Under the pieces are notes generated by a model, which saw only the letters and a list, made by a program, of their open reading frames with translations, ran no database searches and had not been told where the DNA came from. From Eledone cirrhosa (taxonomy: Eukaryota): DNA of 64,000 nt. Positions 33,095 through 64,000 of this stretch are shown here, piece after piece. The DNA lies in assembly GCA_964016885.1 (NCBI GenBank), contig OZ024761.1, positions 28,086,001 to 28,150,000 of the forward strand. The letters are read 5' to 3'. Within the stretch, counting starts at the first letter, position 1, and every line of letters begins with the position of its first letter. The translations under genes were made by a program, and so were the position numbers.

Positions 33095-34934
33095 GGCGAC
33101 CTACGTAGGAAATCGTATTATCGTGAGCTCCGCAAAGGTTTGTTGTTTTCAGTTGTTTCAAATTGCCATTTATAGAAAATTTTTGTTGTTAAGTGTTTAT
33201 AAGTTCATATATATTGCTTTCGGAAAAGGACACTCAAAAAGATTGGGGCCTTGAGCCCAAAATTTAAACTTTTATAATTATCAAACAAAAGATTTCTTTG
33301 AAAAAATCATGGACGACTCACAGCCACACCAAGTTGACGGCCTTCCTCAGAAACTAACACCTCCCACCAACACCACCATTGTAAACATTACTACGTTTGC
33401 CAACACTAAAAATATAAGCAGTAGCAATAATTTACGAACGCCAAACACATCGAGGCGATCGGCACTACACTAAGAGAATACGAAGCGGTGACAAGAGCAA
33501 TGATCAACCAGGAAAAGTCAGTGGGCCTGCAGCTCGGCACCTGGAGGGGCAGGTCCATGACGTCCAACAGCGACGTCGGGCGCTGGACGGACGGACCGGT
33601 TAAATTGCTAGGGGTCTTGTTCGGTCCGGACCTCCAGACGGACAAAAACTGGGACGAGGTGACGAGCAGGGTGGCTTCTCTCACCCAGAAATGGGCGGAG
33701 AGGAAGCTATCCCTGAAAGTTCGAGCGGAGGTGGCTAACGCGTACATCGAGTCGGTCATCTACTACCGCCTGACCGTCGCACCTTGTCCTAAGCCTCGCC
33801 TGACTGCGCTGGAGCGTTTGCTCTTTCGCTTTTTGTGGAAGGGACGCGCTCCGATGGTCAGGCGGTCCATCTGCTGTCAACACCCGCTACGTGGAGAGCT
33901 GAGCATGCTGTGGCTGATGATGCGCAGACACGCGCTCAGGCTACGACATCCCCACCTCTTCCTCGACGGTGATCAGGTGTGGTCGCCGTTTGCTAGACGC
34001 GTCTTTCCCCAACTCGTCTCATTGACGGAGCTGCAGTCCTGGGTCAAGCGAAGACCGAGAGGGAGCGCTTGGAGACTGGAATGTCTTCAGGCGCTCACAG
34101 CCCTCGACCAATCGGGCAATGTGATCGGTGAAAACTCCTTGGCGTTCTATAGAGGATTAGTGGAGGCGAAGAGCGACGACGTACTTGGGGAAACTCTAGG
34201 CGTCGACGAAAATCAACTAGCCAATCTCTTCGGAAGAACTTTCGGGCCGGGGCCTATGAAAAACTTCCAGAAATCCCTGGCCTGGCAGTGCTACCGAGGA
34301 GCTTTTCCAGTTCGGGATAAACTCTACAGGCATGGAGGTGCCGTCAGCCGGCCATGTCCGAGATGCGCGAAGGGCGACGAAACCGTCCTGCACGCACTCG
34401 TCCAGTGTCCGAGCATTGCCCGTGAGGATTGCCCTGCCCTATTCCTTTATCCGGGAAGGGCAGGCAATTTTTAACTTCTGGTGGCCATGGCGAAAGAGAT
34501 AGTATGGTGGACACGTTTGAAAGGGCTGAAGACGATGCCTTGATTAACTTTTTCAAATTTCATTTGAAAAGGAAAATCAGGGCAGAGAAGGAAGTGCTCT
34601 CTTCCCAGCATTTTGTTGAAAGATGGGTGAGAGAGGCAAGAATGGACCGAGTGAATGGGCCAACTCTGAGTATGTGTCTGTAAATTAAAGGTGGAAAACT
34701 GGGAGAGGGCACTTGCCCTGGTGGTCAGGGTCACTGTGACTTTTTAATGGGCTTTCTCCACGAACGTCCCTCGGAAGTCTCCCCCCTATTGGGGAATTTT
34801 TCATTGTTATTTTTTTGTTACATCCTCTGTTTTTGTTTTATTACACGCAGAAATGCCCATTTGTACTGTCCTGTATTGTCCTGTACTGTCCTTAATGTCT
34901 ACTTTATGTAAACCCTTGTGGTTAATAAAGAAAG
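33095..34934 (+). mobile_element. Tx1-type LINE, internally deleted (5'UTR and ORF1 start joined to the ORF2 C-terminal part)
   Basis: ORF 33488-34474 closely matches the C-terminal half of ORF 45980-48922 (EKSVGLQLGTWRG, CPRC..DETVLHALVQC). Segment 33095-33311 resembles the 5'UTR at 43424-43637. Confidence 0.88.
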
Positions 34935-35440: not shown

Positions 35441-36314
35441 CCTTGAATCTCAGTCATTGATGTTGGTTAACTGGAAAGTCCGTTGGATTGAATATCAAGC
35501 CACTACCTGCAGCCTCAGATATTCAGGACGTATCGGAGGGTTCTTGCTGTTCCAAGCAAGCATGCCTTTTGAAGCGTTCCAAAAAGCGTGAAGGGGCCGA
35601 TTTTCTTTAACCATCCCTGGAAACTTTTGGAGATAGTCCCCAGTGCGCCTATGACAATCGGGATCACTTTGACTTCATGGCAGTTCCAAATCCTTTTCAC
35701 CTCCCACTTTAGGTCCTGGTATCGGTTAATTTTCTCCCTCTCCTTCTCTTGCACTCTCGTGTCGAACGGGCAGGCCACATCCACAATCAGGCACGATCTT
35801 TTTTCTTTGTCCACAACCACCAGGTCAGGTCTATTGTGTTCCAGTTTTTTGTCCGTCTGTATCCTAAAATCCCACAGCACCTTCACCTGATTGTTCTCCA
35901 TCACCGCCTCTGGCCTATGCTCATACCATTTCTCAGAATGTGGTAAATTGTTTACTTTGCACAGGTGCCAGTGGATCACCCTGCCCATCACATCGTGTCT
36001 CCAGCCCTTATAGTGGGTCTGGGCTAGGTGTTTACACTCGGACACAATGTGAGCCACAGTCTCCTCTCTCTCTCCACAGATCCTGCACAGTGGGCTAGCC
36101 TCCTCCTTGTAGATATGGTGCTTCAACCACTTCGTTTTGAGGGCCTGCTCCTGCGCAGCCATTAGCATTCCTTCTGTAGCCTTTTTGAGGTCTCCTCTTC
36201 TCAACCAGTTCCATGTCTGTGGATCTCTAAATTCAGTTTTCTCAAAGAAGGTACTATGAAGGGATTTTCCCCTAAGGCTGCTCTTCCTCCTTGATGTTAT
36301 TTCCTCCTTGGACA

Positions 36315-36315
<1 letters not shown>
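35441..36315 (-). mobile_element. R4/Dong-clade non-LTR retrotransposon, 5'-truncated (zinc finger plus restriction-like endonuclease)
   Basis: CRICGEREETVAHIVSEC, RHD, HNRPDLVV, IVDVACPFD and KINRYQDL motifs; flanked by (TAA)n on both sides. Confidence 0.9.
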
Positions 36316-36363
<48 letters not shown>

Positions 36364-36590
36364 ATCAACGACAGCATGAAGTGTCAACTTTCGCCATTTT
36401 ACGAATTAATAATAAATACTGTTGCCAATGTCATCGTTCCTTGCATTAATGATGGCAACTCTTCAAAAATGGCTGAGGCTTTTTCATAATTATATAACTT
36501 GGTGGGTAACTACAAACTACCAGGAGTCTACTACACCAGAGTCAATCGGGCGGGCCATATTTTAATAAGTATATACACATATCTATCTAT

Positions 36591-43185: not shown

Positions 43186-43634
43186 TGTATGGCTTTTCTA
43201 GAAATGCACCTTTAAGGACAGCAGTGATCATCAAATAATTACAGTGGTGGTTTTGACGTTGTTGTGGTAATGGTGTTGTTAATAGTAATGGTGGTGACAG
43301 TAGTAGTGGTAGCAGTAGTGGTAACAGTAGTGGTAGCAGTAGTGGTAGCAGTAGTGGTTTTATTGTTATCATTATTATACTGGCCTTGTGCCAAATGTAG
43401 AAACAATTATTATTATTATTATTGACGAAAGTGGATGTACGTTTTTTGAAGCTCCGTGAGTAAGCAATTTTTTGAGGATTAATTGTGGAGAATTGTTTAT
43501 TTTTTTGTACCGCTGAAGCATTATAAGACATTCATTTGTATCCTGTGAAGGAATAACTCATAATATGTGGGCCTTTTGGCCCAAATATTTGAACTTTATT
43601 TTGGAAAAATAATAATTTTTTTTCTCAAAAAAAC

Positions 43635-45544
43635 ATGGCGGAGCCACGCCCCCTAGAGGCGGGTCTGCTGTCGTGCAACGGCGACTTGGGCGTTGAGAGG
43701 AGAGGTGGGGTGAGGAGCGCCACCAGCACGAGTGTGAGCAGCGACAGTGCCAGCACCAACGGGCCGAGCGGCGCGGAAGGTGGTAACAGCGACAACACCA
43801 ACACCAACAAGCCGAACAGCGCAGAAGGTGGTAATAGCGAGAGCACCAACAAAACGAACAGCACAGAGAGTAATAGTAGCGACAGCAACAGCACCAACAA
43901 GGCCAACAGCACAGAGGGTAACCACGACACAGGGGAGAACAACAACAGCAATAGCAGCAGCAACACCAACAAGAACAACAACAGTGACAACACCAACAAG
44001 AACACCTTCGCTGCTGTGGCAGCGGCTAAAAGGAGACCATGCTACAGCATCGACTTAACCAACAGAGAGGAAAAGTTGGCCCAGGCCTGGAAAATCATAA
44101 ATCAAGAGCAGACCTGGGCAAACTTAACTGTCCCGGCAGAAGCCATTGAGGCAGTGGAAAAAAGAACGGTGCATTTCAGATGCATCTCAGTAGAGACAAA
44201 GAGGGCAGCGATAATCGCCCAAGCTGATATAGAAGCCGCACTGAAATACATCAGAGAGGACACAGACTTCATAGAGAGGGGCAGGCAATACGGCACCGTT
44301 TCGGTGCTGTTCAAGTCTGAAGCCCTCGCTGTGAAGCATTCAATGACCCCTTGCAAAACCAGCAATGTCATAATGTACCCCTCCCACATGGGAAAACGAA
44401 TAGCACGTGTGCGCATTCCCAGGATTCCACCAGGACTTGATATGTGGTGGCTCCTGTGTTGCGTAATCGTGGAAGGAACGGATACAGTCCCGGTAGAGGC
44501 AACGAGAACTGCCAGGGACGACTGGTCCGGGGTTGATCTGGAGATACTGCTCCAAATCAGACCCGAAAACGTAAAAGCAATCCCGGACCACATCCGCCTC
44601 CAAAACGGGAGGGTGTTGCATATAATGACTGAGGGCAAAAGGCCGCATTGTTTCCTTTGTGGGGAAACGACACACTTGCGAGCCTTCTGCCCTCAACTGC
44701 CGAAAAGCGCAAGGGGTCGAAAGATTCCACTGCTGGCGACGCCGGGACAAGGACCACCAGCAACACCGTCAACAATGGAACCACCAAAATTGCACACCTA
44801 GGGGGGAAACGAGGAAAGCTCTCCCATCCCCCCCCCAAAAAAAAATACACACACGAACAAGAACATAAACACTCACTCAGACACAAACACGCTCACAGCC
44901 ACAGACCCCTCATCCTCCAGCAGTGAAGATGAGGGAAAACCAAAGTCCCCCAAAATACAAAAAACAAAACACAAAAAAAAAAGAAATCCACAAAGCACAA
45001 ACACCCCCACAAAAAAAAATACACACACCACCCACACAAACATTTTCCCCACAGCATCACCAACACAACCACCAAAATCCCCCAAACGCAAACAAGCTAA
45101 ACAGACACAAGAACAAATAGACACACAAACATCAGAAACTACAGACACCCACCCACAACAAACGCAGACACAATAGAAACAACACTAACAAAGCTATCAC
45201 CACCACAATCACACGAACAAATAAAACCCGAGCAACAAAACATTAAAAACTTCGTGCTTGCCAGAAGGGCCAACAAGGAATTGATGGCCCATGTAGCACG
45301 AAGCACAAACATCGAAAAAGAGGGGGAAACATTTGAAGCGAGCACATTTCGCGTACCAGATAATTTGCTTCTGATGCGAATGTCGCTCGCTTCATACAAA
45401 GAAATTCGAAAGAGCTTTCCTCGGGATGTGGGAACCCCGAACGTAAAACCCACTTCAAGACTATTAAAGGGGTTCCCAAAAGAAACCCCACAAACCATGG
45501 AGGTCGAACCACCCGACCTTCACAAGACCCCGGAAGGTAAGTAA
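43635..45544 (+). pseudogene. Tx1 ORF1 (gag-like, CCHC knuckle), frameshifted after about 44720
   Basis: ORF 43635-44801 has N/S/T-rich repeats and CFLCGETTHLRAFC (CX2CX4HX4C). The downstream A/C-rich part is broken into short ORFs that end at 45544, just before ORF2. Confidence 0.8.
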
Positions 45545-45573
45545 ACCTTTCCTCTCCCATTCATCCTGCCAGC

Positions 45574-48500
45574 ATGGCCATAAGAGTAGGAAGTTTAAAT
45601 GTTCGTGGCCTGGGGTCGCCCTGGAAGCAAGGTCACTTGCTCAACGACCTCAGGTCACTAGGAATGGATGTAATTGCCATCAGCGAGACCAGAATTTCCG
45701 ACACACGCGCACTGGCGCCGATTTTCGACGATTATCAGATCTTTGCATCTGTTAGTCGGCCGGGAATGGGAGGTGGAGTGGCTGTGCTGTTTAGGAAATG
45801 TCTGGATCTCGAGGTAAGGTCAATCTTCCGGGATCCTGACGGAAAGTTAGTGGTCCTGGACGTGAGCAATAGCCGGTCGGCCGGACTTCTTTAGGCGCCT
45901 GGAAAACTTTCTGCTTACGTCTCGCCCTTTACTGTTAATAGGGGATTGGAATGGCATCTTAGAAGCACGCTGGGATTGTGTGGGAGTATCTGATAGGAGC
46001 GGGGGGTGCAAAAGCCTCAAGTACCTGATCAGCCAGTTTCAACTGTCTGACAGGTACCGACTAGATTTCCCTAATGCGCCAGTATGGACCTGGACCAATC
46101 GCATAGGGTCATCTAGATCATACATAGATAGGATTTTCATTAGGAAAAGAGATAGAAATAGTGTAGGATGTCCACATTTTAAAACGGTTGCCTATTCAGA
46201 TCACAAGCTTGTGATCTGTATGGTCGACCTAGATAAGACACGTAGGTTAGGACCTAGCTACTGGAAGCTAAACATGTCGTTTCCGGCACGTAAAGCTTAC
46301 AGGGACCGGGTCAACAACTTAGTTAAGCAAAAGTTGACAGGGGAGGGTTGTCAACACAGGTGGTGGGGGGCTCTCAAAAGAGAGATTAGAGCAACCTCGA
46401 TAGGATTTAGCAAAGAAGTAGCAATAGAGAAAAATAGAAAGGAGGAGGGGCTGATAGCTAAGTTAGACGAGGCTATTTGTAGTGGCATTGCAACAGACGT
46501 GCTAGCGGCGAGAATGGCACTAGACCATTTCTTCAATGCGAAACACGAAGGTTGCATTGTCAGAGCTAAGGCGCGTGCTCTGAGGAACGAGGGAACCAAA
46601 GCTGCCCGATGGGCTCGCTTTGCAGAGACGCAGCGTGGAAATAAAACCACAATTCGGTCTTTGACGGATCGAGATGGACACGAACTGAGCGATTCCAAGC
46701 AGATGTGTGAGTCCTTTCGCCAGCACTTTGCTCGATTGTTCGGGAGGATGGGTGAGTCGGAGACGGCGGCGGACTTCAGTCCCTACCTCGACGGCTTGCC
46801 ACGCCTCTCGACGGCCGACGCTGAGCGCTGCGAAGAGCCGATAACATCAGTCGAAATTCAGGACGCCCTTGTCGGCTGCTCGAGTCGCAAGTCACCCGGT
46901 TTGGATGGTCTGCCCTACGAGCTTTACGTAAATATGCCAGACTTGTTCTCCGATCTCCTCGAAGCGCTCTACTGCAACTGGCAGCAGAACGGGAGCATTC
47001 CCAGTTCTGTGAGCCGTGGCGTAGTGACGCTGATAAGGAAAGACGAGAACAAGAGGGACACACTGCTCAACACAGAGTTTAAGATTTTGGCCAAGGTGTT
47101 AGCGAAAAGGTTGGCGCTTGTCGTCAAAGATTTGGTTGGGGAGGCGCAAACTTGCGCAATCCCGACCAGGTCCATACACGACAACCTCCACCTCATGCGA
47201 TACATCATAGAGAGGGTTGGGTGCAAACCTGGCTTCGGTGGGGCTCTGATCAATTTAGATCAATCGAAAGCATTCGATAGGGTCGACCATCGGTACTTGG
47301 AGGCTGTCCTCGAGGCGGCTGGCTTCGACCCCGTCTTCAGAAGCTGGATCGCTGCAATGTACAGCGGCATCTGCTCGGTGGTCAAAGTTAATGGCCACCT
47401 CTCGGAACCGTTTCAGATCTCTCGATCGGTCCGTCAAGGGTGCCCTCTCTCCTCACTTCTGTACGTATTGACTCTTGAGCCTCTACTGCGGAAGCTGGAG
47501 TTGTTGCAGGGCATCCCGCTCGAACCGGGACGTAGAAAGGCTGCGTCCGCTTATGCGGACGACATCACCGTGATGGTGTCGGACACCTCGGAAATCGAGG
47601 TGATCCGCACCCATTTGGAGGAATATGAAAGGTTGACGGGAGCAAAACTTAACCCGGAAAAGTCGGTGGGCTTGCAGCTCGGCACCTGGAGAGGCAAGTC
47701 CATGCCGTCCAACAGCGTCGTTGGGCGCTGGACAGACAGACCGGTAAAGTTGCTCGGGGTTTGGTTCGGACCAGACCTCCAGGTGGATAAGAATTGGGAC
47801 GAGGTGACGAGCAGGATAGCCAACCTCACCCAGAAATGGGCTGAGAGAAAGCTATCACTGAAAGGGCGGGCGGAGGTGGCGAACGCGTACATCGCGTCCG
47901 TCATCTACTACCGCCTGACCGTCGTGCCTTGCCCCCGTCCACGCCTCGCCAATTTGGAACGGCTCCTTTTCAAATTTTTGTGGTGGGGACGGGTCCCGTT
48001 GGTGAGGCGGTCCATCTGCTGCCAGCACCCTCTTCGTGGAGGGCTGGGCATGCCGTGGCTAATGATGCGCAGACATGCGCTGAGGCTGCGACGTCTCCAG
48101 ATATTTTGCCTAAACGGTGAACAGGTGTGGTCGCCGTTTGTTAGACGGGCCTTTCCGCAGCTCATCTCTTTGACTGAGCTGCAGTCCTGGGTCAAGAAGA
48201 GACCGAGACTGGGCGACTGGCATCTGGAATGTTGCCAGGCGCTCACTGCACTCTGCAAGGTGGGCAATGCGGTCAGTGGAACTTCCACTCAAGATTTCTA
48301 TAGAGGATTAGTGGAGGGCAAGTACGATGACGTACTAGGAGAGGTTCTAGGCGTCAACGAAGTAGAACTGACCAGTATGTTCCGGAGGACTTTCGAGCCG
48401 GGGACGATGGATAACTTCCAGAAATCCCTCGCTTGGCAGTGCTACCGGGGGGCGCTGCCGGTTCGGGATAAACTCTACAGGCACGGAAGTGCTGTCAGAC

Positions 48501-48922
48501 GAACCTGCCCGAGATGCGCGCAGAGCGACGAAACCGTTCTGCACGCACTCGTCCAGTGTCCGTGCATTGCTGACTTGTGGGGTTATGTCGAACAGCTATT
48601 GTCGCGTGTAGAACGGATCCGGCTATCGTCCGAGTCCATAGTGAAGATTGACCCGCCGCCTTCTTTTGGTCAGGAAGGGCAGGCAATTTTCCTCTGCCTG
48701 GTGGCAGTAGCGAAAGAGGTTGCATGGTGGACCAGGTTGAAAGGACTGAAGACAGACACTTTTCTCTTCGGCCAATCCCTCATCAACTTCTTCAAGTTTC
48801 ACTTGGAAAGGAAGGTGAGGGTGGAGAGAGAAGTGCTGTCCCCCAGTACATTTACTGAAAGGTGGGTGAATGTGGCGAGAATGGCCCGCGTGAGTGGGCC
48901 TACTCTGATCATGCGCCTGTAG
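45574..48922 (+). pseudogene. Tx1 ORF2: AP endonuclease, reverse transcriptase, zinc finger
   Basis: GSLNVRGL, ISET, GDWN, YIDRIF, SDH; SPGLDGL, LDQSKAFDRVDH, VRQGCPLS, AYADD; CPRC..HALVQC. There is a frameshift or deletion near 45880, and the RPI motif is missing before LLN (KRDT-LLN). Confidence 0.95.
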
Positions 48923-55771: not shown

Positions 55772-55971
55772 NNNNNNNNNNNNNNNNNNNNNNNNNNNNN
55801 NNNNNNNNNNNNNNNNNNNNNNNNNNNNNNNNNNNNNNNNNNNNNNNNNNNNNNNNNNNNNNNNNNNNNNNNNNNNNNNNNNNNNNNNNNNNNNNNNNNN
55901 NNNNNNNNNNNNNNNNNNNNNNNNNNNNNNNNNNNNNNNNNNNNNNNNNNNNNNNNNNNNNNNNNNNNNNN
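55772..55971. other. Assembly gap (200 N)
   Basis: Run of n. Confidence 1.
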
Positions 55972-59105: not shown

Positions 59106-59617
59106 AAAATATATATATGTATATATATATATGTGTGTATATATATATATATATATTTATTTAGCTTTACCTCAGTTATATTCTAATTCTAAATCCTTAA
59201 TTTCAAAACTCCACTTTATACTTCCCTAAAATATATTATCGCTTGGCGTTCTATCCAGGGAGAGTCTTGTATTCGTATTCTCAAATGCTTAAGACCAAGG
59301 AAACTAAGGACAGGCAATGGCCTGATGATCTTCCATCTTAGAACAAATGTTTAACTTAACTCGCTGTCTATCTCTTTATTGTATCTCTATATCGCTCACT
59401 CTCTTCTCCATTCCCTCACTTACACAAATTTATGCACAAACGCACACACTTTAGTATATTATCTTTCTCTTATATATAATTTGGACCCATGATTGTAGTT
59501 CCACATTCATCGACTCTCTCTCTCTCTCTCTCTCTCCCCTGCTCAGTCAATATGTAAACTCAGGCAGTCAGTAAACTCCACTTTCTTTTTTTTATATATA
59601 TATATTTATATACACAC

Positions 59618-60234: not shown

Positions 60235-60284
60235 TCGCTCTCTAGGGTTTCATCTCTTCATCTTTCTTCCGCTTTCAAATTTGT

Positions 60285-60459
60285 CTAACGTCCGCGACTG
60301 TAACATCTGCTGTGGCTGTGACTCCGACTGCGGCTTCGACTACAACTCAATTCCCGAGATGGACTTCGAGATCGGCTGTAGGATCGGTAGGAAAAGCTGC
60401 TCAAAGAACTTGGTGTTGGTGGCGTGGGTCGGTGGTATGGAACTGGCCTCTTCCGTGCA
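60285..60459 (-). CDS. Srrm234: Terminal coding exon of an Srrm2/3/4-family splicing factor (eMIC domain second half plus RS tail)
   Basis: A polypyrimidine tract and aacaacAG acceptor (60461-60460) precede t|gca cgg aag agg..., which reads (S)[35 protein letters not shown]...RSRSRS..GR*. This matches SARKRPIPYYRPSP followed by an S/RS-rich tail as I recall from SRRM3/SRRM4. Upstream exons were not found in the window. Confidence 0.82.
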
Positions 60460-60529
60460 CTGTTGTTAACAAAGAAGATTGGAGAGAAAAAAAAAAAAGA
60501 AGTAAAATATGAGAGGAAAGCAAATACTG

Positions 60530-60576
<47 letters not shown>

Positions 60577-60577
<1 letters not shown>

Positions 60578-60762
60578 CGAAGGAAATGTGGTAAGGAACC
60601 AGGTGGACCATAACGCACCAAAGTACTCAATACTTGAGGTAGTAGAGTGGGTAATAGGAACCAGTAAGACCCCGACAGCTGAGCTCAAGCCGTTTCGACG
60701 GCTAATTCTGGACTAAATGAAAATTTATCCTGGTATTTAAATAGCCGATCTTCTCAAGGGGT
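60577..60762 (-). mobile_element. Family A copy retaining a non-palindromic 5' half with a degenerate hammerhead core
   Basis: Minus strand: ACCCC-uugagaa-gaucggcua...uagccguc-GAAA-CGGC-uugagcuca-GCUG-UC-GGGGU plus tail. Confidence 0.8.
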
Positions 60763-60791
60763 AATTCCATATATGGTCAAAGTGATTGTCA

Positions 60792-60835
<44 letters not shown>

Positions 60836-60934
60836 TATACATGCATATATTTATATATACATATATACACAAACACACACACATATATGTATATGTATAT
60901 ATATATATGTATATTTACAAAAGCACACATGCAT

Positions 60935-60969
<35 letters not shown>

Positions 60970-60990
60970 TATATATATATGTAAAATCAT

Positions 60991-61038
<48 letters not shown>

Positions 61039-61111
61039 CACATACATATACATATATATACACATACACACAAACATATATACATATGCATATATATATA
61101 TATATATATAT

Positions 61112-61427
61112 AAAGAAAAAGAGATGAAATCGAAAATGCAACTGGAGTCTTATTTTTTTTTTAAATATATATATTTATTTGGTTCCTTTACCAGTTTCGC
61201 AGTTCTTCTGCTTTTCAAAAGGTGAGTTGAGATAGAGGGTCTGCTCCATCTCAACTCACCTTTTGAAAAGCAGAAGAACTGCGAAACCGGTAAAGGAACC
61301 AAATAAATATATATATTTTTTAAAAAAATAAGACTCCAGTTGCATTTTCGATTTCATCTCTTTTTCTTTATACTTTCACTCGTGTAGGACACCTCGGTTA
61401 TTTTTCATTTTGTAAAAAAAAACCCAC

Positions 61428-61433
<6 letters not shown>
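61112..61433 (+). mobile_element. Fold-back family B, copy 2
   Basis: Nearly identical to 13251-13607 but with a shorter centre. Confidence 0.88.
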
Positions 61434-61482
<49 letters not shown>

Positions 61483-61556
61483 TATATACATATACACACA
61501 TATATATATATGTATATAAATTTATACATACATATGTAAGTACACAACACATATAT

Positions 61557-61603
<47 letters not shown>

Positions 61604-61672
61604 CATATCCTTATCGAGCCCTCTTTGTATTTTAGTCTTCAAAATTATTATTATTACTATTATTATTATTAT

Positions 61673-61714
<42 letters not shown>

Positions 61715-61731
61715 ATATATATATGTGTATA

Positions 61732-61772
<41 letters not shown>

Positions 61773-61906
61773 ATATATATATATGTATATATATATATGT
61801 GCATTATATATATATGTATATATATATATATGTGTATTATATATATATGTATATATATATATATGTGTATTATATATATATGTATATATATATATATATG
61901 TGTATA

Positions 61907-61944
<38 letters not shown>

Positions 61945-61993
61945 TTATAACATTTTAAAGCTTGTTGAATCCCAACAAATTAAATATAACCTC

Positions 61994-62065
<72 letters not shown>

Positions 62066-62141
62066 TATATGTGTATATATAAATATATATATATATATAT
62101 AAATATATATATGTGTATATATATGTATGTATACATATATA

Positions 62142-62263
<122 letters not shown>

Positions 62264-62264
62264 C

Positions 62265-62299
<35 letters not shown>

Positions 62300-62300
62300 C

Positions 62301-62333
<33 letters not shown>

Positions 62334-62792
62334 CACATACACACACACAGAGAAAGAAAGAATGATATTGTAGAGGTTAGCCTAAACCAACTGGCTGAAA
62401 GCAAATGTCTCTGTATACCCAAGCTACAGTTTTGTCAGTCAGCCATTTGGGAATTTGGAATTTGGAAAACTTCAAAATGACTAACTGATGAATCGGAAGG
62501 AAATAGTTAGCCTCAGGCATTATTTTTCCTAGAAACGGAATTAAATAATCTATACTAAAATTCCAGTATTAAGTACATTTTCTCCAATAGGTTACAACAC
62601 TCATACAATATATATAACATATACATAGGGTAAATACATATAATATATGCATACATACATATATATATAAAGAGAGAGAGGGAGGGAGAATTATCTATAC
62701 AAACACATATATACTTAGTTATATATGTTATATAATACATACATATATACATATATTGTATATAATACATACATAATATATATATATATATA

Positions 62793-62931
62793 GGAAATAG
62801 AAATAGCCGTCGAAACGGCTTGAGCTCTGCCGTTGGGGTCATACTTTTTCCTATTTCCCACTCTACTACCCTAAGTATTGAGTACTCTGGTGCGTTATGG
62901 TCCATCTGGTTCCTTACCACAATTCCTTTGT
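62793..62931 (+). mobile_element. Family A copy (subfamily aaagtatg), left arm mostly deleted
   Basis: agaaatagccgtcgaaacggcttgagctctgccgttggggtc plus tail. Confidence 0.85.
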
Positions 62932-63169
62932 TTTATATATATATATATATATATAGATAGATATAGATATAAAGGTTTACATATACATAAAGTCATAGAT
63001 ATATATGTTTTGCAACCGGTCACATTGTGGCTCAATGAAGAATTAATAAATTAAATAATCAGAGCAATATATCATAAATCATGTCCTTAGAATCACTAGA
63101 TAAAATATATACCATTTCTTCTCCCAATTAGCACAATATTTTATCTAGTGATTCTAAGGACATGATTTA

Positions 63170-63241
<72 letters not shown>

Positions 63242-63321
63242 CAAAATATATATATATATTAATTACAAGAATATCAATAACCAGAATAATAAAAATATCA
63301 AGTAAGCATATACATCAGTAC

Positions 63322-63367
<46 letters not shown>

Positions 63368-63922
63368 AATACATGAAATATAAATACATATAAATATATA
63401 TATATATAGAGAGAGAGAGAGAAACATACATGCATGCAGCACAGAAAAAAGATAAGCGAGATAGTTTCAATAAGCAGCCAATGAAAATATATTAACTATA
63501 TAAAAAAATTAATTTAATAAAAGAAATAAAATAATTAGTGTTGACAAGGTTCAGTTTCCTTTTATAGGAATTGCATCTGCTCCACTATATATACATATAC
63601 ACACACACATATATATGTATATATATATGTGTGTGTGTGTGTGTGAAAAGTTTTGTGAACAGTTTCGTGACTATATAGAGAATTTGTAGTTTTTCCAAAT
63701 TGAAGGATGAGTATTTAAACTTTATTTTATTCTGAGTTAAGACTCTATTGGTTTTTCACCTGGATTTCACAAAATCTGTGGATAAATTCTCTGTCTTGAT
63801 TTTTTTAATTGAGTTTGAATTATTTTACCATTATTTTACATTAATTATTTTCCATCTTGACGTTATAGTCACTTATATATTATGAAATACTGTTGGCTTT
63901 TTGCTCACATTAATTTCTCAAT

Positions 63923-63980
<58 letters not shown>

Positions 63981-64000
63981 CAAAATATTAATAAATGAAG

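Follow-up and report, generated by a model that had tools for sequence, protein, structure and literature searches.

Whether a short reading frame lying between TA microsatellites in an octopod genome can be the last exon of an Srrm234 gene, and how the activity of such a gene would be confined to neurons, are the questions raised by this locus. The domain at issue, the enhancer of microexons (eMIC), contacts U2AF and SF1 and drives the inclusion of microexons in flies and mammals, as described in passages of PMC8797185; passages of PMC10551640 and PMC6800468 are further sources on its action and its neuronal confinement. According to the same parts of PMC8797185, neuronal restriction of the eMIC is achieved in vertebrates through transcription of SRRM3 and SRRM4, and in non-vertebrates through processing of the transcripts of a single gene. 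The window, by which we mean the whole stretch of 64,000 nucleotides analyzed here (positions 28086001-28150000 of contig C22), was read in a preliminary description as holding the eMIC-encoding last exon of a single Srrm234 gene, used as a neural alternative 3′ end.

The eMIC Exon and Its Partner Exon

On the minus strand, the exon opens at 60459 of the window with a single base T, followed by 57 codons that start with ARKRP, run into an RS tail and close with TAG at 60287-60285. Its acceptor AG (60461-60460) is preceded by a poly-T/pyrimidine tract, the 65 nt upstream containing no further AG, and TA microsatellites lie on either side of the exon. Past the stop codon, the earliest AATAAA hexamers are located at 59380 and 59161; an assembly gap of 200 N occupies positions 55772-55971, 4.3 kb below the stop codon. 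Coordinates of the features are collected in Table 1.

The Pfam SRRM_C profile (PF15230) was searched against the whole 3.0-Gb genome and gave three matches: the window exon (profile positions 56-67), a second minus-strand exon located 21.3 kb upstream (profile positions 12-55; C22:28167880-28167743), and a weak match on contig C2. Scored alone, the upstream exon is above the cut-off of 27 bits (31.5 bits) and the window exon reaches 12.9 bits over profile positions 57-67. The preliminary description had predicted a same-strand partner exon ending in RRIT and a serine codon split as AG|T. Such an exon, coding exon 8 of our model, is present across an intron of 21,281 nt; its RRIT codons are followed by AG and a GT donor, so that the split codon reads AGT and encodes serine. 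The spliced junction anticipated at 60459 was found as well, in a contig of 363 nt (depth 4.7) from sequencing run X4 that joins window positions 60236-60459 to the last 139 nt of exon 8 with no mismatches. Since the intron is skipped in this contig, we infer that run X4 is RNA. The stretch occurs in four sequencing runs from one study and at most two samples, the kind of which is off record, and the junction is carried by the one X4 contig; in runs X1-X3 the last exon is covered by no contig, and the contigs over exon 8 are unspliced and uninformative on expression.

Joined in this contig, the two exons encode an eMIC domain that is complete over the RRIT|S junction and intact. Over a 39-residue segment of our own choosing, in a region that is of low complexity, the domain is identical at 36 residues to that of abalone, at 37 to oyster, at 34 to pond snail and at 36 to Solemya; beyond the molluscs, the corresponding figures are 31-32 for two insects and 23 for sea urchin. 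The partner exon, the conservation of the junction and the existence of a spliced contig rule out a chance reading frame within microsatellite DNA. Collectively, the SRRM_C matches, the RRIT partner exon and the spliced contig uphold the identity first proposed for the window exon, which is almost certainly the eMIC exon of Srrm234.

Table 1. Coordinates of the large gene on contig C22, of its last exon in the window and of the intronless paralog.
Feature	Position	Strand	Content
Exon 1	C22:29385348-29384844	minus	rewritten N-terminus and first half of cwf21
Exon 2	C22:29172375-29172277	minus	second half of cwf21
Exon 3	C22:28642779-28642612	minus	
Exon 4	C22:28419730-28419662	minus	
Exon 5	C22:28362744-28362682	minus	Lys-rich
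Exon 6	C22:28275140-28275036	minus	least certain exon
Exon 7	C22:28175606-28175187	minus	RS-rich
Exon 8	C22:28167887-28167741	minus	first part of eMIC
In-window end of last intron (21,281 nt)	window 60460..64000	minus	rest of the gene lies beyond the window
3′ splice site	window 60460..60525	minus	acceptor AG (60461-60460) with pyrimidine tract; 65 nt free of AG
Last exon (coding exon 9), coding part	window 60285..60459	minus	second half of eMIC, RS tail, TAG stop
3′ UTR start	window 60236..60284	minus	covered by the spliced contig as far as the TA microsatellite
Intronless paralog	C26:19508247-19509308	plus	353-codon ORF on another chromosome-scale contig

Structure of the Gene on Contig C22

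The region analyzed comprised 1.54 Mb of contig C22 around the window. A family profile built from up to 27 proteins was searched against 58,900 six-frame ORFs covering 1.6 Mb, and the top seven hits all lie on the minus strand in protein order, three of them strong (E 5e-16 to 4e-10) and four individually weak (E 0.017-0.22). A composition scan of the two intervals left over gave one acceptor candidate in each, and exons 6 and 7 begin at acceptors of the expected phase. The resulting model has nine colinear coding exons that span 1,239,064 nt and encode 573 amino acids in an open frame. All eight introns are GT-AG and of phase 2; they measure 212, 529, 223, 57, 88, 99, 7 and 21 kb in order, lengths that are approximate because three 200-N assembly gaps lie inside the gene (two more lie in the downstream region scanned for alternative ends). 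The cwf21 domain that the preliminary description had expected further upstream is present on the same strand, 1.24 Mb away, and is divided by junction 1-2 (Pfam profile positions 1-25 and 25-44), this division being the basis on which the junction was placed. Junctions 5-6, 6-7 and 7-8 we infer. As the first coding exon starts at an acceptor, a 5′ UTR exon is likely to lie further upstream.

It is very likely that the exons from cwf21 to the eMIC form one gene. The opposing view would divide them into a cwf21 gene (exons 1-5) and an SRRM4-resembling eMIC gene with its own promoter (exons 6 or 7 to 9), and it would account for the public models, which are fragments ending at or before exon 5, for the three unseen junctions, and for the sizes of introns 5 and 6. 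We regard such a division as very improbable: the exons lie on the same strand in protein order with uniform phase 2 and an open frame, exons 6 and 7 start at acceptors in the expected phase, and the same blocks make up one protein in abalone, oyster and snail.

Several further observations were made along the gene. In exon 1, the rewritten N-terminus is separated from cwf21 by an insert of about 70 residues of poly-Thr/Pro/Ala, encoded by trinucleotide repeats; the opening residues of the exon resemble by eye, in an alignment, those of a fish SRRM3-like protein, over a stretch too short to weigh. A palindrome of about 100 nt, also spotted by eye, is found about 1.2 kb upstream of exon 8 (L001 2830-2935). 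In the ESM Atlas, exon 7, although poorly recognized, led to an SRRM4 cluster at 0.90, and a fragment from O. sinensis led to SRRM4-like clusters at 0.81; both were treated as leads and not used as evidence. In Haliotis asinina, eight additional residues at the junction of exons 4 and 5 distinguish Srrm234 isoforms (P0004, P0245 and P0246), as if the gene of the regulator itself contained a 24-nt microexon.

Searching exon 3 against 1.84 billion representatives returned three hits, namely two proteins that are 100% identical and one unrelated repeat protein. One of the identical proteins is a hypothetical protein of O. vulgaris that matches exon 3 only. The other, XP_036369324.1 of O. sinensis, joins exons 2-3-4 and the start of exon 5 as in the C22 model, which it leaves three residues into exon 5; it has another N-terminus in place of exon 1. 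Both are from Octopus, and neither squid nor cuttlefish yielded a C22-type protein in this search; likewise, none of 63 hits of 101-2000 aa was a C22-type protein containing exon 1. Over exons 2-4, 108 of 112 residues are identical in O. sinensis, and the matching part of the C26 protein described below gives 88 of 96 columns. The stem branch of the C22 type measures 1.21 changes per site, compared to 0.007 and 0.035 for its tips. Judging from the 108 identical residues, the rewritten helical region of C22 is not decaying.

A Second, Intronless Srrm234 Locus

Three genome searches, using cwf21, the C26 protein and an abalone protein, found two Srrm234 loci above noise, one on C22 and one on contig C26, so that the single gene assumed in the preliminary description proved to be two. 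A third cwf21 match (C9:10000702-10000809, E 0.8) lies in an exon of a different gene, likely U2SURP/SR140. The C26 ORF opens with a canonical Srrm2 N-terminus, which is followed by cwf21, the helical region and an end rich in lysine, and it is uninterrupted across four intron positions of the C22 gene. It encodes no eMIC, and the surrounding 60 kb hold no eMIC relic. Its nearest relative is a protein of O. vulgaris (92% over 180 aa), followed by three proteins with 83-84% identity, of which one falls into a cluster with Sepia pharaonis SRRM2, and these relationships mark the genome as that of an octopod; relatives of C26 occur on as many as 69 Logan contigs.

In other animals, there are predicted proteins that terminate by read-through where introns 1, 5 and 8 are located. 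Because these ends match introns of the C22 gene, C22 represents the ancestral structure, and C26 is most simply explained as a retrocopy of a short mRNA. The flanks of C26 show no evident poly(A) relic, the A-runs of 10 and 13 at +148 and +727 lying in AT-rich DNA, and a non-systematic inspection identified no target-site repeat. We consider it likely that C26 is a retrocopy that carries the SRRM2 role.

Opposite Divergence of the Two Proteins

The two proteins were compared, by mean identity per region, with a reference of 13 non-cephalopod lophotrochozoan proteins. Five regions were used, corresponding in abalone numbering to residues 1-26 (the N-terminal segment), 27-57 (linker), cwf21, 102-117 (linker) and 118-172 (helical region); the results are given in Table 2. 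As judged from the sequences, C22 lacks the canonical N-terminus and has kept cwf21, while C26 keeps the canonical N-terminus. Among spliceosome structures, the C26 protein matches residues 1-161 of human SRRM2 with E 1e-55, and the chain 6qdv_R, 26 residues long, with E 9e-9. Among the 19 PDB matches of C22 exon 1 (E ≤ 1), neither human SRRM2 nor 6qdv_R appears, a result to which the low-complexity insert may contribute. According to passages of PMC7671692, the conserved N-terminus of SRm300/Cwc21 contacts the spliceosome, and passages of PMC5835773 describe how SRm300/Cwc21 stabilizes the Prp8 switch loop.

Table 2. Mean identity (%) to the 13 lophotrochozoan proteins, by region.
Protein	N-terminal 26 aa	Linker	cwf21	Linker	Helical region
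C26	83	61	70	57	69
C22	37	29	77	26	30
One fish SRRM3-like protein (partial)	21	22	73	27	11
Camel SRRM2	85	49	59	16	53
13 proteins among themselves	86	65	79	61	72

Age of the Probable Split

A tree of 24 rows was built, with vertebrates, arthropods, echinoderms and amphioxus left out. In it, six intronless-type proteins, Sepia pharaonis included, form one branch with support of 100/100, and the C22 type stands outside. Five sites are derived in the intronless type and ancestral in C22, compared to none for each of the two other groupings, and the intronless-type proteins have in common a His-rich expansion that C22 lacks. These results suggest that the retrocopy split probably predates the divergence of octopods and cuttlefish. 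They argue against a duplication confined to octopods, in which the short cuttlefish-type proteins would come from an undivided parent gene. That later date agrees with the failure to obtain any C22-type hit from decapods, and the AU test, in which both octopod copies were held together, placed it 13.8 log units worse without rejecting it (p=0.119). In view of the branch, the five sites and the expansion, we hold the octopod-only date to be quite unlikely, and the older split is retained in what follows.

Alternative 3′ Ends and the Ordinary Invertebrate Mode

In abalone, apple snail and two further proteins, non-eMIC RS-rich tails of 31-54 aa follow the RRIT donor. The 222 kb below the exon-8 donor, with 5,269 acceptors and two assembly gaps inside, were scanned for ORFs of at least 15 aa whose first 30 aa contain at least 40% R+S and three RS/SR/SP pairs, a scan that is blind to tails shorter than 15 aa and to intronic polyadenylation. 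No RS-rich non-eMIC last exon was found outside repeats and unrelated ORFs: three of the seven hits lie within the eMIC exon itself, three are look-alike repeat copies, and one is an unrelated weak ORF. For the eMIC exon, read in the preliminary description as an alternative 3′ end, no RS-rich competitor was found in this interval outside repeats and unrelated ORFs. When the non-eMIC tails of four lophotrochozoan proteins were searched by tblastn against 1.6 Mb, only exon 8 and a weak stretch of intron 4 (E 0.33) were returned, the sensitivity of this search being low because the tails are low-complexity.

These data bear on the possibility that C22 follows the ordinary invertebrate mode, in which the gene would be broadly transcribed, polyadenylation in intron 5 or 8 would give eMIC-less products, the eMIC exon would be chosen in neurons, and C26 would be supplementary. 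Read-through into C22 introns 5 or 8 does yield short eMIC-less products, and AATAAA hexamers occur 431 and 597 nt into intron 8; other molluscs have forms of about 220 aa that end by read-through at the exon-5 donor in addition to the tails past the RRIT donor, and flies use proximal polyadenylation, as described in passages of PMC8797185. However, the scan just described gave no RS-rich alternative last exon, the single spliced contig passes from the exon-8 donor directly into the eMIC exon, and an eMIC-less C22 product would be a poor housekeeping factor, because its N-terminus is far less like the conserved one than that of C26 (Table 2). We therefore consider the ordinary mode unlikely, and favor a division of labor in which C22 is dedicated to the eMIC.

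Repeats in the Window

A palindrome of 256 nt (window 61113-61368; 94% self-complementary, -203 kcal/mol as RNA) lies about 650 nt upstream of the acceptor, and an inverted pair (window 60580-60709 and 62799-62928; 90% over 130 nt) has one arm ending 120 nt before it. Both were considered as dedicated splicing control and rejected because they are dispersed repeats: the palindrome gave 19 BLAST hits in 1.6 Mb, and the element of the inverted pair, a common short repeat, gave 105. As double-stranded RNA, the palindrome is a likely candidate for editing. Elsewhere in the window, a LINE-type element (43593-48922, plus strand) comprises an ORF of 402 aa with no Pfam match followed by one of 1,018 aa that matches endonuclease, reverse transcriptase and zf-RVT; two LINE fragments, each matching zf-RVT, lie on opposite strands at 33431-34474 (plus) and 35515-36405 (minus).

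Proposed Mechanism and Significance

With moderate confidence, and on comparative grounds, we propose that C22 is a neural parent gene dedicated to the eMIC, set free when the C26 retrocopy took over the general spliceosome role. A short eMIC-less mRNA consisting of exons 1-5 would have been retroposed, probably in the coleoid ancestor. The C26 copy would have preserved the segment at the N-terminus with which SRRM2/Cwc21 grips the Prp8 switch loop. With the housekeeping function presumably supplied by the retrocopy, the C22 parent would have been free to specialize on the eMIC and to accumulate very long introns. Relieved of the spliceosome role, it would have passed through a burst of change in which its N-terminus and the helical region that follows cwf21 were rewritten, after which at least exons 2-4 would have been frozen; cwf21 and the eMIC would have been kept throughout. 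The C22 eMIC is predicted to act as in SRRM3/4, contacting U2AF and SF1 and committing microexons to splicing. Restriction to neurons would come from transcription of a very long gene and not from the choice of a last exon. Transcription proceeds at 2-4 kb per minute. At this rate, the 1.24-Mb gene would take 5-10 hours to transcribe, which would suit non-dividing neurons.

An eMIC exon is an already described domain, and its presence in this animal was to be expected; what may be new is the split into two genes. If the proposal is correct, an octopod with two specialized genes would be an exception to the rule that vertebrates use transcription and non-vertebrates use processing, and would represent regulatory convergence between two big-brained lineages. 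C22 would then be the likely master regulator of cephalopod microexons. As the other gene likely carries the essential housekeeping role, the regulator would lend itself to knockout without its partner, which would make the role of microexons in cephalopod neurons directly testable. In public annotation, the N-terminal half of the C22 gene was encountered only in fragments named "hypothetical" or "uncharacterized", and the eMIC-less copy is labeled SRRM2-like.

A literature search on octopus, cephalopod and mollusc Srrm or eMIC, to which the 2019 paper defining the eMIC was external, found no report of a two-gene split. That paper, by Torres-Mendez et al., reportedly included octopus among the species covered, and there is some chance, which we put well below even, that the octopus duplication was already noted in it or in its supplements. 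In the relevant passages of PMC8797185, cephalopods are named only in a reference; they are not mentioned in the passages of PMC12626424 and bioRxiv 2024.09.17.613571 that bear on the subject, and the corresponding parts of the main text of a 2026 preprint (10.64898/2026.09.05.749416) contain no Srrm or eMIC.

Comparison with Known Systems

Compared to SRRM2/SRm300 and yeast Cwc21/Cwf21, C26 has the same canonical N-terminus, cwf21 and helical region and likewise has no eMIC. Human SRRM2, however, is a protein of 2,752 aa with a very long RS region, whereas C26 is intronless and encodes 353 aa with no such region.

Compared to Drosophila Srrm234 (CG7971) and the genes of other single-gene invertebrates including abalone, the C22 eMIC is split in the same way at RRIT|S, with its second half in the last exon. 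In those animals, one gene with a canonical N-terminus produces both forms through an alternative last exon and polyadenylation (passages of PMC8797185; abalone isoforms X2 and X4), whereas the present genome has two genes, the 222 kb scanned gave no RS-rich alternative last exon, and the N-terminus of the eMIC-bearing protein is 37% identical to the reference set, compared to 86% within the 13 lophotrochozoan proteins.

Compared to vertebrate SRRM3 and SRRM4 (nSR100), C22 likewise has a C-terminal eMIC after an RS region and a separate eMIC-less paralog in the same genome. As in SRRM3, divergence has affected the 26 N-terminal residues and the helical region but has spared cwf21 (37/77/30% over N-terminus, cwf21 and helical region for C22, and 21/73/11% for the one fish SRRM3-like protein). 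C22 does not descend from the vertebrate SRRM3/4 duplications: the vertebrate set of three genes (Srrm2, Srrm3 and Srrm4) arose within vertebrates, according to passages of PMC6800468, and C22 does not group with the fish SRRM3-like protein in a tree, in which support was low. The mollusc split differs in being of independent origin and in that the housekeeping role falls to the new copy, which has no introns. Transcription in neurons has been demonstrated for the vertebrate genes, as described in passages of PMC8797185, whereas for C22 it is predicted. It is possible, if somewhat short of probable, that coleoids, whose brains are the largest among invertebrates, independently repeated by retroposition the vertebrate division of Srrm234 into a ubiquitous SRRM2-like gene and a neuron-specific SRRM3/4-like master regulator of microexons, with the same regions rewritten, the parent grown to more than 1.2 Mb and its helical region fixed. 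In such a convergent split, the almost unchanged state in which the helical region of C22 was fixed would point to a new binding partner.
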